Positions 6,775 through 11,220 of a stretch of 64,000 bases of DNA are shown piece after piece. Where the stretch lies: the sequence record PV730300.1; one strand, written 5' to 3'. The notes under the pieces are model-generated. The model saw only the letters and a list, made by a program, of their open reading frames with translations. It did not search any database and was not told the DNA's origin. The first letter of the stretch is position 1; each line of letters starts with the position of its first letter. The position numbers and the translations under genes were made by a program. The DNA comes from a phage.

Positions 6775-6781
6775 TAAATAA

Positions 6782-6803
6782 AGGGCAGAAATGCCCTTTT
6801 TAT
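6782..6803 (+). terminator. Rho-independent terminator after tail tube gene
   Basis: agggca-gaaa-tgccct hairpin (GNRA loop) followed by ttttt. Confidence 0.7.
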
Positions 6804-6819
6804 CATTAGAGAGGAAAAT

Positions 6820-7302
6820 ATGTCACAAGAACAAGATAACACAATTCAAAAATATGCTCGACCAGAAGAAGTAGTTGAGATTCCGTTAGATGGAAACAGA
6901 TCTGTTACTTTCCGTATTATGAAGTGGAGTCCATCTAAAGTGTTTGACAGGATTCCAGAATTGGGTAGTGTTCTGGTTGTTCCTATGACTATGTATAGCA
7001 CAGCAACAATGTCCGCAGACGAAGACCTTGAGTCACGTATTGCTATGGCACTGATCCAACTTTTTGCGGGTTTGGAAGAAAAGAATTTAACTGTCTTTTT
7101 GCGTAAAATTTTAGATGAGGTTTATACTCAAGACGGTTATAACGTTGCAGAAAATTTTGATGAATTATTTATGGCTCACCCAGAACTAGTGTTAGATCTT
7201 ACTGCTAAAGTTCTGGAGGTAAACTACGGCCCTTTTTTCAAACGAGGTTTCGGAAAACTGTTCACACAGCTTCAGGCGATGACGAGTTTAGCAGCAAATT
7301 AA
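6820..7302 (+). CDS. Tail assembly chaperone (gpG-like)
   Basis: 160 aa acidic ORF upstream of the tape measure region; contains slippery heptamer near its 3' end with an open -1 frame continuing to 7568. Confidence 0.55.
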   Translation: MSQEQDNTIQKYARPEEVVEIPLDGNRSVTFRIMKWSPSKVFDRIPELGSVLVVPMTMYSTATMSADEDLESRIAMALIQLFAGLEEKNLTVFLRKILDEVYTQDGYNVAENFDELFMAHPELVLDLTAKVLEVNYGPFFKRGFGKLFTQLQAMTSLAAN

Positions 7303-7568
7303 CACCTGCGATTGAACATGCTATCGACACAGCAACGAAAACCCTTACTTTGAAGTGGTATGAGGTTATTCTTTGCAAAGTCGTTAAAGATACCTCGGAA
7401 ACACTGAAAACATTGGATAACTACGGTGTAGATTATCTTTTAAAACTATATGAGTATTTAACATACGAAGAGTATGTTGAAGCCATGTATGTTAAAGACA
7501 CTTCAATAAAGAGAAAACATCAAAACCAAACAAATAAAATGTCAGATTTGTTTAAGAAACTTGTTTGA
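6820..7568 (+). CDS. Tail assembly chaperone G-T fusion product via -1 frameshift at 7233-7239
   Basis: Predicted fusion of about 250 aa (G frame to 7239, then -1 frame to 7568); conserved position immediately upstream of tape measure gene. Confidence 0.45.
7233..7239 (+). other. Programmed -1 ribosomal frameshift slippery site (T TTT TTC)
   Basis: Zero-frame codons CCT TTT TTC (7231-7239) give heptamer U UUU UUC; the -1 frame is open from 7209 to a stop at 7566-7568. Confidence 0.5.
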
Positions 7569-7593
7569 CTTTAAAACGTCACGGTGGTATACT
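7565..7593 (+). promoter_or_regulatory. Sigma70-like promoter candidate (TTGACT-N17-TATACT) upstream of endonuclease-like ORF
   Basis: -35 TTGACT 7565-7570, 17-nt spacer, -10 TATACT 7588-7593; followed by GGAGG SD (7610-7614) and ATG 7621. Confidence 0.45.
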
Positions 7594-7620
7594 TCTTTTA
7601 TTGAATAGAGGAGGAACATC

Positions 7621-8937
7621 ATGCGTGGCGTTTTAAATATTATAGGTCAAGACCCAAACAATCCAGACAAAATTCTGGTTACATGCTCTATCTGTTCAGA
7701 AGATAAAGAACTTTATCCTCAACCTTTCAGCATGTTCAAAAGTAACTTTGGTAGGCAAACACCTTGTGGTTGCTCAAAATGTCCAAAACTAAGTGAAGAT
7801 CAAGCCTACATTGTAGCAAAGAGAGCTACAGAAGCTTTAGGATACACTTTTTTAGGTTGGAGTAAAGAATACACAGGCTCAAGTTCTACAAAAATCCGTT
7901 GTGTTTGTCCTGAACATGGGGAATGGAACACTGGTATAATTTCAACGATTCGGAAGGGTGTGGGTTGTCCAAAGTGTGTAGATCCTAGGAAAAGAAAAGA
8001 TTTAGTAAAAGCTGAAGATTTCTTGGCAACAGGCTTCTTTGAAGATGGGACTACTTTTACCAAATCTGAAAGAAAAGATAAAAATGGTTGGAGTCCTTAT
8101 TGGTTTGTTACCTGCCCTACATGTTCAAATGATAAGTTTGTAAAAGCTGGACTTTGCTCTGGTATCTTTGAAGGCATGAAGTCTAATCTTTTGAAGGGTG
8201 CTAAACCTTGTCGTTGTTCTTCAAGGTATGTATACACTGAAGAGCAATATATTTTACGAATTAACACTGAAACACCTTATAGCTTTATTCGTTGGATTGG
8301 GAAGTTTAAAGGTAATCGCTCAAAAGTTGTAGTTTTTTGCGAAGAACATGGCGGTGAGATAGAGATGACTGTTTTTGGTTTGTTATCGGGAAACCGTTGT
8401 ATTACTTGTCACGGACACAAACCGAAACCAGAGACTGACATGAAAGAACAATTGAAAAAGGTTTGTGAGGAACGTGGATACACTTTTGTAAAGCTTATTG
8501 ATTACAAATCAAATAAGAGTTCTTTTCAATACTCTTGCAAAACCCACGGCATCCAACAAATATCAATCACAAACTTTATACACGGTGAACAAGGTTGTCC
8601 AGAATGTAGAGGTAAAAATCAGACCTATGCTTATATTCACCTGGTGGAAGATGAGGGTCTTGGTATTATTGGTCTTAAATTTGGAATAACAAAAAATCCA
8701 AGAATAAGAATAAGGCAACAGAATCGACTTGCTAAATATAAACTACGCAAGTTTAAGTTATATAGATTTGAAACTGTGGCAGCTTGTCGCACCGCAGAGA
8801 AAGAAGTGAAAGACGTTTTACCTTGCGGAGTTTTCTCCCAACAAGACATTCCAGACGGGTGGACAGAGACAACTTATATCTACAACCTGGAAAACATTAT
8901 GAAAATCTTTGAAGATAATGGAGGAATACTTTGTTAG
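7621..8937 (+). CDS. Homing-endonuclease-like protein: five tandem zinc-ribbon modules plus C-terminal T5orf172 (GIY-YIG-like) domain
   Basis: Repeated Cys-pair modules (TCSICS...TPCGCSKCPK; IRCVCPEHG...GVGCPKCV; FVTCPTCS...PCRCS; VVFCEEHG...RCITCHG; YSCKTHG...GCPECRG); C-terminal YAYIHLVEDEGLGIIGLKFGITKNPRIRIRQQN matches the T5orf172 pattern as I recall it; strong SD; lies just upstream of a group I intron core. Confidence 0.6.
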   Translation: MRGVLNIIGQDPNNPDKILVTCSICSEDKELYPQPFSMFKSNFGRQTPCGCSKCPKLSEDQAYIVAKRATEALGYTFLGWSKEYTGSSSTKIRCVCPEHGEWNTGIISTIRKGVGCPKCVDPRKRKDLVKAEDFLATGFFEDGTTFTKSERKDKNGWSPYWFVTCPTCSNDKFVKAGLCSGIFEGMKSNLLKGAKPCRCSSRYVYTEEQYILRINTETPYSFIRWIGKFKGNRSKVVVFCEEHGGEIEMTVFGLLSGNRCITCHGHKPKPETDMKEQLKKVCEERGYTFVKLIDYKSNKSSFQYSCKTHGIQQISITNFIHGEQGCPECRGKNQTYAYIHLVEDEGLGIIGLKFGITKNPRIRIRQQNRLAKYKLRKFKLYRFETVAACRTAEKEVKDVLPCGVFSQQDIPDGWTETTYIYNLENIMKIFEDNGGILC

Positions 8938-8989
8938 AAATTAACGCCTTAACTTAGGGGCTAATGTGTAGTGATACACATTATCAACT

Positions 8990-9250
8990 TTGTGAATTGC
9001 TGGGACACCCTTAGAGCCACACTACCACTGCGAATCGAAAGATGAAGCCACGGTTTGAAAAGTGTGTGGATTGGGTAATCAGCAGCCAAGCTCCGTTTAG
9101 GAGAAGGTTCAACGACTATCCCGTAAGGGAGTAGGATCAAGTGGTCCGAAGCGCAAAGCGTCTCATGTAGATGAAGATATAGTCTAATCTGTAGGGAAAC
9201 TTACAGCAGCGAAAGCGGGGAAGAATTAACGAATCTTCCCGAATACAATG
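8990..9250 (+). ncRNA. Group I intron catalytic core (P3-P9)
   Basis: Recognisable conserved elements: P-like aattgctgggaca (8996-9008), Q-like aatcagcagcc (9077-9087), R-like gttcaacgactatc (9107-9120), S-like aagatatagtct (9174-9185); gactat/atagtc give 6-bp P7; GNRA-loop hairpins at 8964-8981 (GTGA) and 9189-9206 (GAAA); no long ORF. Confidence 0.7.
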
Positions 9251-9264
9251 CAAAAATTAGTAAC

Positions 9265-11220
9265 GTGGTTACGTTTAAGGTGGACAAGAACAGTCTCAAG
9301 GAAGCAAAAGATGCCGTGTTGAGTGTTCAGAAGTTTGCAAATAAAATGCAACCCACTATGAACATGACCAAGTTTAGACAACAAATGAAAGAGATTGAGC
9401 GTGAACTTAAGAAAGCTCAAACTCAAAGTCAAAAACCTATGCGAGCACCTACTCCCGCTGGAGCGGGTGCTCCTGTAGGTGGATCTGGCAGACCTAGAAC
9501 TCCTAAAACCCCGCAAGGAAGAGAAGAAGAAAAAGCTCGTAAAGCGGCTGAACGCGAAGCTAAAGCAGCAGCACGTAGGGAAGATTTAGGTAATCTTCGT
9601 TTGCAGAACTTTAACTACCGAGCAAAAGCATTTAGTAAAGCCAGTCCTGGCGCTATGCAAGAAGCTAGAGACGTTATGGGTAAAGCTGTAGAGCAATATA
9701 AGAAGGGTGAAATAACTCTTCAACGTATGAACCAAGCTCTTGCTCACCAGTTAGATGCTTTACGCAGATCTCATCGTGAAAAGAATGCTGAAATAGAAGA
9801 CGAGGTTCGCGGTCGTCGCCGTATTCGTAGAGAGCTAGAAGCAGAAGCTAAAATGCGTATACGTATGCGAAACCGTGAACTTAGAGATATAGAACGCAAC
9901 CGTAAGCGTGAATTAGCTCAGCAAAAACGTGATCGTGATCGTCGATATGGACAATTAAAAGAAGGTGCAGCAGGTCTTAATCCACGCATGATTGCATCCT
10001 CTTTGATAGGTGCTGGACTGTTTGCAGGTGGTTCTGTAGTTGGTAACACTTTGATGAATACTAACGAAAGAATTAAAATGGTTAGTCGCGGTGCTGAAAA
10101 CGTCCAAACGAATGCTAACTCTATTTTAACAATGACCGCATGGGGTGAACAAAACGGTGTAGACTCGGCAAATATCATTAAAGCAATAGATAACATTAAA
10201 GACGTTCGTGAACGTCTAGGTAATACCATGATGAACACCAAATGGAACGCAAAAGAAGGGAAATGGAAAGGTGGTGATAACGGTATTACTGATATTATGA
10301 ATGCTTTTGGTTGGAACCCCGATCAAATAAAACATTTGCAAAATGACCCGTTAGCTTTTATCCAAGCCACTGTTAATGAAGGCGAACGTCGAGGCATGAA
10401 CTCTGCTCAAATCGGGCGACTTCTTGAAAACCTTGGTGATGACCTTATGCACTACCAACGTATGTTTAGTAAAAACGGCGAAGGGTATAACGAAGTATTG
10501 AAAATGCTTCAAAGAACAGGTGCAACATTAACTCAAGAACAAATAGATGCTTCTAAAGAGTTTACTCGTTTTGCTGCAACAGTTCAGCTTGTAGGTCAAG
10601 GTATGCAGAACCATTTCCTGGAAGGTTTTGTAAAAGCTTTACCTAAAGATGATTCTTGGTTGGATAATGTTAAAGTGCTAGATCAGTTCGCCAAAGATTT
10701 AGGTGAAGAACTTGGTAAAACAACAGTTCAACTTGGTGGTTTTGCTAAAGAATTGGGAGATGGTTTCGGATCTTTTACCAATTGGCTTAAAGAAACATTC
10801 CCCGATACCTTCGGAGACAACACAGATCCTAATAAATCTATGGCACAAAAAGCATATGAGGCAACGCAAAGTGGAGACAGTAACCCTGTAGCAGATTGGT
10901 TGTACAATTTAACAGGTATTGATACACAAGATATTGGTCGTATGTGGAGAGGAGAGCAAACAAGGACACGTGCTTTTGGATTTGGTAATCCTCTTGAGGA
11001 TTTACGTGAATCAGCCTATACACCTAACGTAAGTTTGGCTCGTAATCAACCTGTTGTTGAGAATACGGTAGCAATACCAAGTGATCTTATCAAAGTTACG
11101 ATCAGCCCTTCTTCCGAGTTTGGAAATATTCTTGATGCAAGAATTCAAAACAGCGGAAATAGCATTTTCCAACGTTTGTCTCTTTCAACTCTAAGTGGAC
11201 AATCTAACACTGGTGGTTAA
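9265..11220 (+). CDS. Tail tape measure protein (probable 3' exon; true 5' end unresolved)
   Basis: 651 aa, charged helical N-terminal region, follows the chaperone frameshift pair; listed GTG start has no SD and the frame opens only at 9175 inside the intron core. Confidence 0.6.
   Translation: MVTFKVDKNSLKEAKDAVLSVQKFANKMQPTMNMTKFRQQMKEIERELKKAQTQSQKPMRAPTPAGAGAPVGGSGRPRTPKTPQGREEEKARKAAEREAKAAARREDLGNLRLQNFNYRAKAFSKASPGAMQEARDVMGKAVEQYKKGEITLQRMNQALAHQLDALRRSHREKNAEIEDEVRGRRRIRRELEAEAKMRIRMRNRELRDIERNRKRELAQQKRDRDRRYGQLKEGAAGLNPRMIASSLIGAGLFAGGSVVGNTLMNTNERIKMVSRGAENVQTNANSILTMTAWGEQNGVDSANIIKAIDNIKDVRERLGNTMMNTKWNAKEGKWKGGDNGITDIMNAFGWNPDQIKHLQNDPLAFIQATVNEGERRGMNSAQIGRLLENLGDDLMHYQRMFSKNGEGYNEVLKMLQRTGATLTQEQIDASKEFTRFAATVQLVGQGMQNHFLEGFVKALPKDDSWLDNVKVLDQFAKDLGEELGKTTVQLGGFAKELGDGFGSFTNWLKETFPDTFGDNTDPNKSMAQKAYEATQSGDSNPVADWLYNLTGIDTQDIGRMWRGEQTRTRAFGFGNPLEDLRESAYTPNVSLARNQPVVENTVAIPSDLIKVTISPSSEFGNILDARIQNSGNSIFQRLSLSTLSGQSNTGG

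Follow-up and report, generated by a model that had tools for sequence, protein, structure and literature searches.

A group I intron in the tape-measure gene of a phAPEC8-like phage lies beside a free-standing homing endonuclease gene that may mobilise both

Sequence record PV730300.1 holds a stretch of phage DNA of 64,000 nucleotides (nt), which we refer to as the window throughout; it comes from a Phapecoctavirus coliphage, i.e. a phAPEC8-like myovirus, and is 99.1% identical to Escherichia phage nepoznato over positions 6800-9700. Here we report that the gene for the tape-measure protein (TMP) of this phage is interrupted, after a first exon of just 19 nt, by a group I intron that contains no open reading frame (ORF) of its own, and that a second insertion directly upstream carries a free-standing homing endonuclease gene (HEG). 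The interpretation that we favour, with a probability of roughly 0.7, is that these are two separate selfish insertions that travel together, the endonuclease mobilising both itself and the adjacent intron by collaborative or trans homing.

An earlier note on this DNA, made from the letters alone, had recognised a canonical group I intron in the tail-morphogenesis region and had proposed a scan with a covariance model. The Rfam model RF00028 matches positions 8938-9206 of the + strand with 92.9 bits (gathering score 50, E = 1.4e-22) over its full length (model positions 1-253 of 253), and the recognition is borne out by this match as well as by the covariation and the protein-restoring exon junction described below. 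RF00028 is the sole Rfam family to reach threshold in the window, and it also exceeds its threshold in nepoznato and in assembled contigs. As judged by folding of 8940-9260, the minimum free energy lies well below that of dinucleotide shuffles (z = -4.5, with none of 100 shuffles as good), and the unconstrained minimum free energy fold yields P1, P2, P4, P5, P5a, P9, P9.1 and P9.2 (coordinates of all features are collected in Table 1). Two additional hairpins, P7.1 and P7.2, come after the 5′ strand of P7 and before the 3′ strand of P3 and assign the intron to subgroup IA, which is the usual group I type in phages, and, since the longest + strand ORF inside it amounts to only 30 amino acids (aa), the intron encodes no protein. 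The boundaries 8950/9250 are the only ones that reproduce the sequence of the empty site, and both ends have the form typical of group I introns: the 5′ splice site follows U8949, which forms a U-G wobble with the guide sequence, and the 3′ end is G9250. The P10 pairing is weak and ambiguous. The element is hence confirmed as a complete group I intron that is predicted, on the strength of its sequence, to be self-splicing.

Much of the detail in the earlier note also holds. The Q (9077-9087), R (9107-9120) and S (9174-9185) elements are where it had placed them, as are the GNRA-capped hairpins at 8964-8981 and 9189-9206; the gap after the ORF at 7621-8937 does measure 327 nt (8938-9264), P7 does consist of the six pairs gactat/atagtc, and gctg/cagc is indeed part of P4. 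The P element is present as well, but at 8995-9007, one base off the proposed 8996-9008. The note went astray with ggga/tccc as P3. We dropped this candidate in favour of the pairing of 8988-8994 with 9152-9158, which covaries, three of its seven pairs being changed on both sides among nine related introns.

The intron had also been thought to lie between two genes, in a non-coding stretch. This is incorrect, as it is the TMP gene itself that is interrupted, 19 nt past the TTG at 8931 that intron-less relatives use; the intron is not intergenic because a native Shine-Dalgarno sequence (SD), the TTG and 19 nt of TMP coding sequence precede position 8950. The intron-less phages ESCO5, ZCKP1 and phAPEC8 are colinear with the window to 7566 and from 9253 on and share the segment 8920-8949 with it, and exon 1 is identical to their annotated TMP start, which is also the RefSeq start. 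Joining 8949 to 9251 gives LLEINASKISNVV..., with the same N-terminus as in these three phages, and the protein read across the junction, LLEINASKISNVVTFKVDKNSL..., is identical to that of ESCO5. The sole nucleotide difference is at 9252, where the A in exon 2 makes a synonymous change from TCC to TCA relative to the intron-less alleles of the same lineage. In the RNA, excision would join ...AACGCCU to CAAAAAUU..., and in DNA letters the expected junction is AACGCCT followed by CAAAAATT.

Unspliced, the frame opened by the TTG runs for eight codons (LLEINALT) and then stops within the intron, at 8955-8957. The spliced TMP of 662 aa matches the family profile phrog_16051 from end to end (positions 1-660 of 660, 1230.7 bits), whereas the unspliced ORF at 9265-11220 covers only positions 13-660; no SD was found upstream of its GTG at 9265. 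Splicing is needed for this essential gene to be read from its conserved start. ORF callers choose the GTG at 9265 and thereby drop 12 conserved N-terminal residues, and the nepoznato record (NC_052658.1 gp021; L001:3981; window 9251-9290) starts the TMP within exon 2, with neither the intron nor exon 1 annotated.

The spacing of signals around the 5′ splice site is tight: the stop codon of the endonuclease gene lies 12 nt and the TMP start 19 nt from it. It is tempting to speculate that translation and splicing compete on the same RNA, since the 5′ strand of P1 would be hidden under any ribosome that starts at TTG 8931 or ends translation at 8937. Further into the same gene, positions 10000-10400 form a mosaic patch with ~75 clustered differences from both nepoznato and ESCO5 that is close to Klebsiella phage ZCKP1; a recombination tract ~750 nt past the intron thus distinguishes the two intron-carrying genomes, the window and nepoznato.

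Table 1. Features of the window around the interrupted tape-measure gene
Feature	Position	Strand	Basis or remark
SD GGAGGA (8920-8925), TTG start (8931-8933) and TMP exon 1 (8931-8949, TTGTTAGAAATTAACGCCT)	8920-8949	+	native segment between the two insertions
Group I intron, subgroup IA, ORF-less, 301 nt (insertion 2)	8950-9250	+	Rfam and empty-site comparison
TMP exon 2	9251-11220	+	junction comparison, profile coverage
P1	8946-8949 with 8958-8961		U8949-G8958 wobble; exon GCCU pairs with intron GGGC
In-frame stop TAG within the intron	8955-8957		inside P1
P2	8964-8981		GUGA loop
P3	8988-8994 with 9152-9158
P4	8998-9003 with 9079-9084
P5	9007-9010 with 9073-9076
P5a	9017-9022 with 9064-9069		extension capped by GAAA
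P6/P6a	9085-9108
P7	9114-9119 with 9179-9184
P7.1	9120-9129		GNRA loop
P7.2	9134-9147
P8	9159-9173
P9	9189-9206		GAAA loop
P9.1	9209-9216		GAAA loop
P9.2	9218-9240
Terminal G of the intron	9250
Free-standing HEG cassette: promoter, ribosome-binding site, most of the ORF (insertion 1)	7567 to ~8919	+	two-piece matches, ESCO5/ZCKP1 breakpoints
Sigma-70-like promoter TTGACT-17-TATACT, TG before the -10	7565-7593	+	10/12 matches, best in the region
Homing endonuclease ORF, 438 aa (predicted activity)	7621-8937	+	N-terminal CapR/DUF723 repeats; C-terminal GIY-YIG-fold domain, ~residues 335-438
Conserved 72-aa ORF, function unknown	7350-7568	+	phrog_16039, 1.7e-45; colinear with ESCO5 to 7566
Tail assembly chaperone	6820-7302	+	Pfam PF21822 Phage_TAC_15, E 1.3e-23; phrog_3840, 2.8e-55

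As judged from the pattern of substitutions, the ribozyme fold is under ongoing selection. The intron of the window and its copy in a second lineage (contig L012) are both 301 nt long and are separated by 29 substitutions and no indels. Helices harbour 18 of the substitutions, which touch 13 base pairs; 12 of these pairs still form, the sole pair lost being the one that closes P9.2, and five were changed on both sides (from window to L012: U-A to C-G in P2; C-G to A-U and C-G to U-A in P5a; U-A to C-G and G-C to U-G in P9). When the L012 substitutions are permuted, a mean of ~10 pairs are broken and 0.4 double changes keep pairing, and none of 20,000 permutations matches what is observed. The intron of nepoznato differs from that of the window only at 9124, in the loop of P7.1 (GUAA versus GAAA); with GCAA in the second lineage, all three genomes have a GNRA loop at this place.

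The same signal extends to more distant copies. We aligned nine related introns with MAFFT, not fitting them to any structure, and scored 62 pairs: 91.1% of the cells are paired, compared to 31-44% when the partners are slid by 1-3 columns, and 29 pairs are changed on both sides, with none of 500 shuffles reaching any of the observed measures. Covariation is strong in P3, P5a, P8 and P9. P4 and all but one of the P7 pairs are invariant across the nine introns, and these two helices are uninformative on covariation by themselves, because their pairs never, or almost never, vary. In the distant relatives, 64-89% of P7.1/P7.2 is paired, a figure lowered partly by alignment gaps.

The ORF at 7621-8937 had been taken for the tail chaperone in the earlier note. 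The chaperone is in fact encoded at 6820-7302, and 7621-8937 belongs to an insertion that the relatives lack; we identify its product as a free-standing homing endonuclease of the CapR/T5orf172 type, with activity predicted from domain content. The protein matches Pfam CapR in five stretches (2.6e-46), Pfam DUF723 (6.8e-5) and the 'endonuclease' family phrog_681 (1e-89). Among 30 aligned homologues, CapR is matched by all 30, T5orf172 by 10 and MUG113 (PF13455) by seven at E <= 0.01. Six residues, Y338, K353, G355, R363, E393 and E416, are invariant among these homologues down to 28% identity, and Y338, R363 and E416 correspond to the catalytic-type Tyr, Arg and Glu of GIY-YIG nucleases. The AlphaFold model of the protein has a mean confidence (pLDDT) of 84, rising to >90 for residues ~335-438, i.e. 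for the nuclease domain.

The HEG cassette replaces ~10-12 nt of the original intergenic spacer. Its left boundary is the stop codon of the 72-aa ORF, which is TAA in empty sites and is regenerated as TGA in the window; its right boundary is approximate, as the SD region is shared. The -35 hexamer of the cassette's promoter overlaps this TGA, and a ribosome-binding site, AGGAGG, serves the HEG. While promoter-like sites in the region are not more numerous than expected by chance, TTGACA-17-TATTAT and TTGACA-17-TAAAAT occupy the corresponding position in the diverged L012 cassette and in that of a third lineage (L023), respectively, so that all three cassettes retain TTGAC(T/A)-17-TAxxxT. This recurrence of the hexamers and of the 17-nt spacing in two diverged cassettes argues that the promoter is real and of the host type, and it presumably functions as such. 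At the other end of the gene, the TAG that terminates the HEG (8935-8937) falls on TMP codons 2-3, in a different frame.

Both insertions are rare among the close relatives of the phage. In ~60 other GenBank records the flanks are ~99% identical and match the window in two pieces, spanning 1256 bp as compared to 2901 bp. A 211-nt probe laid over the uninterrupted ESCO5 site retrieved 65 records, of which 63 are intact at >=99% identity; the two interrupted ones are the GenBank and RefSeq copies of nepoznato. Neither this probe nor the sequence searches returned a record of this lineage with just one of the insertions, and there is no intron-only genome among 65 + 6 GenBank records or the assembled contigs. 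Additional copies of the HEG and the intron came only from Logan assemblies, by protein look-up: the exact HEG protein is present on seven assembled contigs, and all four loci among these that were scanned with Rfam (L007-L010) have the same intron at 92.9 bits. Exact-pattern scans yielded 0 matches for the exon 1-intron and HEG-TMP junctions in IMG/VR, and 0 for the intron junction in JGI metagenomes.

The second lineage carries a HEG whose product is 68% identical (P0002, three contigs) in the same slot, between flanks that are 97.9% identical to phiWec179, 181 and 186, and its intron (L012) interrupts the TMP gene at the same codon (86.6 bits with the Rfam model). Phages phiWec179, 181, 186, 188 and 190 as well as PsgM04F are without both insertions. 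When the nucleotide sequences of the two intron-bearing lineages are compared, the intron is 90.4% identical, the sheath gene 81.7%, the chaperone gene 73.5%, the endonuclease gene 71.0% and TMP exon 2 60.5%. The third lineage (L023:2440-3480, a Logan contig from SRR23967707) has a 308-aa relative of the HEG product in the same chaperone-TMP slot, 47% identical over residues 132-436 of the window protein, in which the N-terminal CapR repeats are missing and the nuclease domain is kept; no intron was detected in this contig, and its TMP gene is uninterrupted. The slot is thus occupied in three diverged lineages, a fixed-site presence/absence footprint of mobility. We also considered whether pairing with an intron is a general trait of this HEG family and rejected the idea: for four more distant homologues (L024-L027), the gene is free-standing, its neighbours are small ORFs and no intron was found nearby.

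The joint presence and absence of the two elements, both of which are found in two lineages and neither in their closest relatives, is what the favoured scenario sets out to explain. The ribozyme would excise itself from the TMP RNA and rejoin the reading frame. In a mixed infection, the endonuclease would cut the conserved, uninterrupted chaperone-TMP junction of a sister phage, and repair of the break would copy the HEG plus the intron, the latter being copied along because it is only tens of bases away: the HEG cassette ends ~25-30 nt upstream of the intron insertion site. One recognition site could span both insertions, since in the empty allele the insertion points lie within ~41 bp of each other. 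Should the cut or recognition site span the intron insertion site, this would be collaborative homing, and the intron would then shield the genome that carries it; should the cut fall elsewhere nearby, it would be trans homing, with the intron dragged along in the way of the T4 nrdB intron and MobE. The splicing activity, the activity and target of the endonuclease and the direction of transfer are what we infer in drawing up this sequence of events.

Several observations weigh against this scenario or narrow it. The related HEG of L023 occupies the same slot next to an uninterrupted TMP gene, from which it follows that the HEG has no need of the intron and that the intron is not necessarily an immunity device; since this HEG-only lineage shows an endonuclease independent of the intron, we do not choose between collaborative and trans homing. 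A long co-conversion tract was not found: over >200 nt to the left and to the right, the flanks are ~99-100% identical to the empty alleles, A9252 being the sole difference, so that nothing documents a recent transfer from a diverged donor. A9252 itself is the state of the second lineage and of its empty relatives, and could reflect co-conversion, better P10 pairing or immunity to the endonuclease. Furthermore, the HEG is as diverged as the flanking genes (71% versus 60-82% nucleotide identity), which is also compatible with a long vertical history and several precise losses, and the co-occurrence of HEG and intron comes from two lineages only. As to the endonuclease itself, the match of the protein to Pfam T5orf172 (PF10544) reaches 17.0 bits, which is below the curated cutoff of 20 (E = 0.0085), and a Foldseek search with the whole model gave no significant match.

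Could the two insertions be a single one? A composite mobile intron of the classical kind would extend over 7567-9250, with its 5′ splice site upstream of the ORF and the HEG in a 5′ peripheral loop. Precedents exist among the relatives of this ribozyme, as in Serratia 2050HW and PhiPA3 an endonuclease ORF lies directly upstream of the related core, between the halves of an RNA polymerase beta gene, and the related Litunavirus intron carries an endonuclease ORF after its core. We nonetheless regard a composite element as very improbable here. The native segment 8920-8949, comprising the SD, the TTG and 19 nt of coding sequence, parts the two insertions (it is for this reason that we rejected the HEG as part of the intron), and the exon 1 within it is the annotated start in intron-less genomes; in every allele the 72-aa ORF is closed by a stop codon of its own; the exon end GCCU pairs in P1 with GGGC at 8958-8961, a helix present in the minimum free energy fold; and L023 holds the HEG cassette without an intron. 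The same contig lends itself to an altogether different explanation, namely that HEG and intron are independent neighbours that arrived separately and have no functional link, the intron being a vertical passenger or having spread by ordinary recombination or reverse splicing. The distant HEG homologues, which are free-standing with no intron nearby, would agree with this, as would the closest relatives of the intron, whose host genes (RNA polymerase, capsid) are unrelated and which are accompanied by endonucleases of other kinds, and the much greater divergence of the HEG between lineages (71% nucleotide identity) than of the intron (90%). We consider it unlikely all the same, given that both intron lineages have the HEG ~25-30 nt away and every close relative is without both, that the intron-only genome it leads one to look for did not turn up in the sets given above, and that an ORF-less intron is not mobile by itself. 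At such a spacing, moreover, gene conversion initiated by the HEG would almost inevitably co-convert the intron (a principle taken from PMC2790892).

It is likewise improbable that one of the two elements is decayed or domesticated, i.e. that the ribozyme is inactive and the TMP is made from an internal start such as GTG 9265, or that the endonuclease is by now a DNA-binding regulator only, like the CapR repressor of Vibrio PLE satellites. The public annotation does start the TMP downstream of the intron, and ORF finders do call GTG 9265; the SD and TTG upstream of the intron, however, are conserved, no SD precedes 9265, the 12 N-terminal residues regained by splicing are conserved in the family profile, and the substitutions between lineages preserve pairs and compensate one another. 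For the endonuclease, the CapR domain family does include a domesticated repressor and the T5orf172 score is sub-threshold, against which stand the invariance of Y338, R363 and E416 in 30 homologues to 28% identity and a domain modelled at pLDDT >90.

A more far-reaching version of the favoured scenario joins several of these points, and we put it forward tentatively, considering it possible but rather doubtful. In it, phAPEC8-like phages keep, next to one another, the stages of the pathway that Bonocora and Shub are said to have proposed for the assembly of mobile introns, which would be the empty site, the endonuclease alone (L023) and the endonuclease with an ORF-less intron (window, L012); the endonuclease would have a target of <=~40 bp that spans both insertion points; the intron would be a self-immunity device; and translation of the TMP would depend on splicing, because ribosome loading and P1 formation should compete at spacings of 19 nt and 12 nt. 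If the joint version were true, the T5orf172 family would have its first functional collaborative-homing system, as would tail genes, and it would be available in E. coli K-12 phages, between which direct crosses are possible.

How does the pair compare with known systems? The T4 td intron with its intron-encoded GIY-YIG endonuclease I-TevI is the classical phage IA2 intron; in our case, the endonuclease lies outside the intron, its domain order is the reverse of that of I-TevI, with DNA-binding repeats N-terminal and the nuclease C-terminal, and the host gene is structural, not one of nucleotide metabolism. Another T4 intron, that of nrdB, has no working endonuclease and is mobilised through gene conversion by the neighbouring free-standing MobE (Wilson and Edgell 2009, PMC2790892). 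The likeness is in an intron without a working endonuclease of its own and a nearby free-standing endonuclease within recombination distance; however, MobE is an HNH enzyme that does not act at the intron insertion site, whereas the enzyme here has a GIY-YIG fold, the nrdB intron retains a defunct ORF whereas ours has none, and the spacing of ~25-30 nt is far shorter than in T4.

Collaborative homing has been described for the psbA intron of cyanophage S-PM2 and the free-standing F-CphI (Zeng, Bonocora and Shub 2009) and for T3 gene 5.3 and PhiI I-TslI (Bonocora and Shub 2009), as related in PMC3984707. There, too, a free-standing endonuclease lies beside an ORF-less intron, and empty alleles are proposed to receive copies of both. 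Cleavage at the intron insertion site was demonstrated for these systems, whereas here it is a prediction, and the endonucleases are the Endo VII-like F-CphI and an HNH enzyme, in contrast to the GIY-YIG fold here; a further difference is that our HEG is located upstream, where it overlaps the region in which the interrupted gene starts. In the large terminase gene (terL) of vibriophage ICP1, an ORF-less intron in an essential late gene has an adjacent T5orf172 HEG and a short first exon missed by pipelines (Barth et al. 2023, PMC10448857), and CapR/DUF723 zinc-ribbon repeats combined with a T5orf172 nuclease have been described for putative homing endonucleases of ICP1 and other phages (PMC10448857). 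Our locus shares with it the endonuclease family, the ORF-less intron, the essential late gene and the short exon 1 missed in annotation; it differs in host (E. coli as opposed to V. cholerae), phage group and interrupted gene (tape measure as opposed to terminase), and exon 1 is 19 nt here.

Outside phAPEC8-like phages, the closest sequence relatives of the ribozyme core are the RNA polymerase introns of Pseudomonas Litunavirus phages (YH6, LP14, phPLST and Pa_WF01; ~78% identity over ~220 nt) and of jumbo phages (HPP-Temi, PhiPA3 and Serratia 2050HW), with shared core helices that covary. Both groups differ from our intron in host gene, in that most have an endonuclease ORF within or abutting the intron, and in residing in unrelated phages and bacteria. 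The relatives that split RNA polymerase genes are found at L019:470-1835 (2050HW), L021:494-1780 (PhiPA3) and L004/L005:2953-3970 (Litunavirus). In Vibrio phage 1.232.O (L020:1464-2393), the core lies just past the annotated end of the major capsid gene, with an HNH nuclease after it. The records leave most of these introns (L004/L005, L019, L020 and L021) unannotated.

Still further relatives reside in capsid and virion-structural genes of other phages, so that introns in structural genes are not unprecedented; together with terminase and lysin introns in the literature, they make the rarity that the earlier note ascribed to introns in a late tail region an overstatement. A literature search that was not exhaustive found no published intron in a tape-measure gene and no mention of this one, and the nepoznato paper contains neither 'intron' nor 'homing'. 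The arrangement of a free-standing endonuclease with an ORF-less intron is therefore already known, and the pair is not a new kind of element; the tape-measure example is new and unannotated.

Some observations concern the surroundings of the locus and the genomes that share it. The chaperone gene is annotated likewise in nepoznato, ESCO5 and ZCKP1. Between it and a virion structural/tube-like gene, positions 6780-6799 form a perfect 8-bp GC-rich hairpin with T runs on both strands, resembling a bidirectional terminator, and phAPEC8 has an annotated terminator at the equivalent place. The nepoznato annotation divides the large terminase gene in two, with an HNH endonuclease between the parts (L030:3553-6597, a locus outside the window), and the anaerobic ribonucleotide reductase gene into several parts (L031:37473-41546). 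Neither locus has a group I intron above the Rfam threshold, and these genes may be split by diverged introns, inteins or endonucleases. A match in two places had hinted at a second intron in nepoznato, and there is no further Rfam match above threshold in this genome; at the far end of the window (60-64 kb), where the ORF layout differs from the split-nrdD mapping of nepoznato, there is no intron-like match even at E 0.1. Finally, 95-100% identity to coliphage Phapecoctavirus is seen at this locus in records that bear the names Campylobacter phage B15, Pseudomonas phage PsgM04F, an Acinetobacter phage and a 'Dompiswa' phage; their host labels seem doubtful and may stem from coliphage contamination or from hosts assigned in error.

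Only a few cases underpin the concepts of collaborative and trans homing, and although endonucleases of the T5orf172/CapR type are abundant in ICP1, phi92-like and other phages, their homing is mostly inferred. The locus described here flags a systematic annotation error: the TMP is mis-annotated in nepoznato and in the metagenomic relatives, and pipelines will repeat this wherever an intron sits a few codons into a gene. For the biology of homing, its value is that nepoznato, a culturable phage of E. coli K-12, carries the endonuclease-intron pair, and that its sister phages anhysbys, ukendt, tuntematon and nieznany, which were isolated on the same host, have an empty site that is 99.5-100% identical, making for a tractable test of collaborative homing by an enzyme of the T5orf172 family. 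With natural variants available as empty site, HEG only, diverged pair and HEG with intron, the locus could show whether the intron is an immunity device, over what distance co-conversion reaches and by what route such pairs arise.

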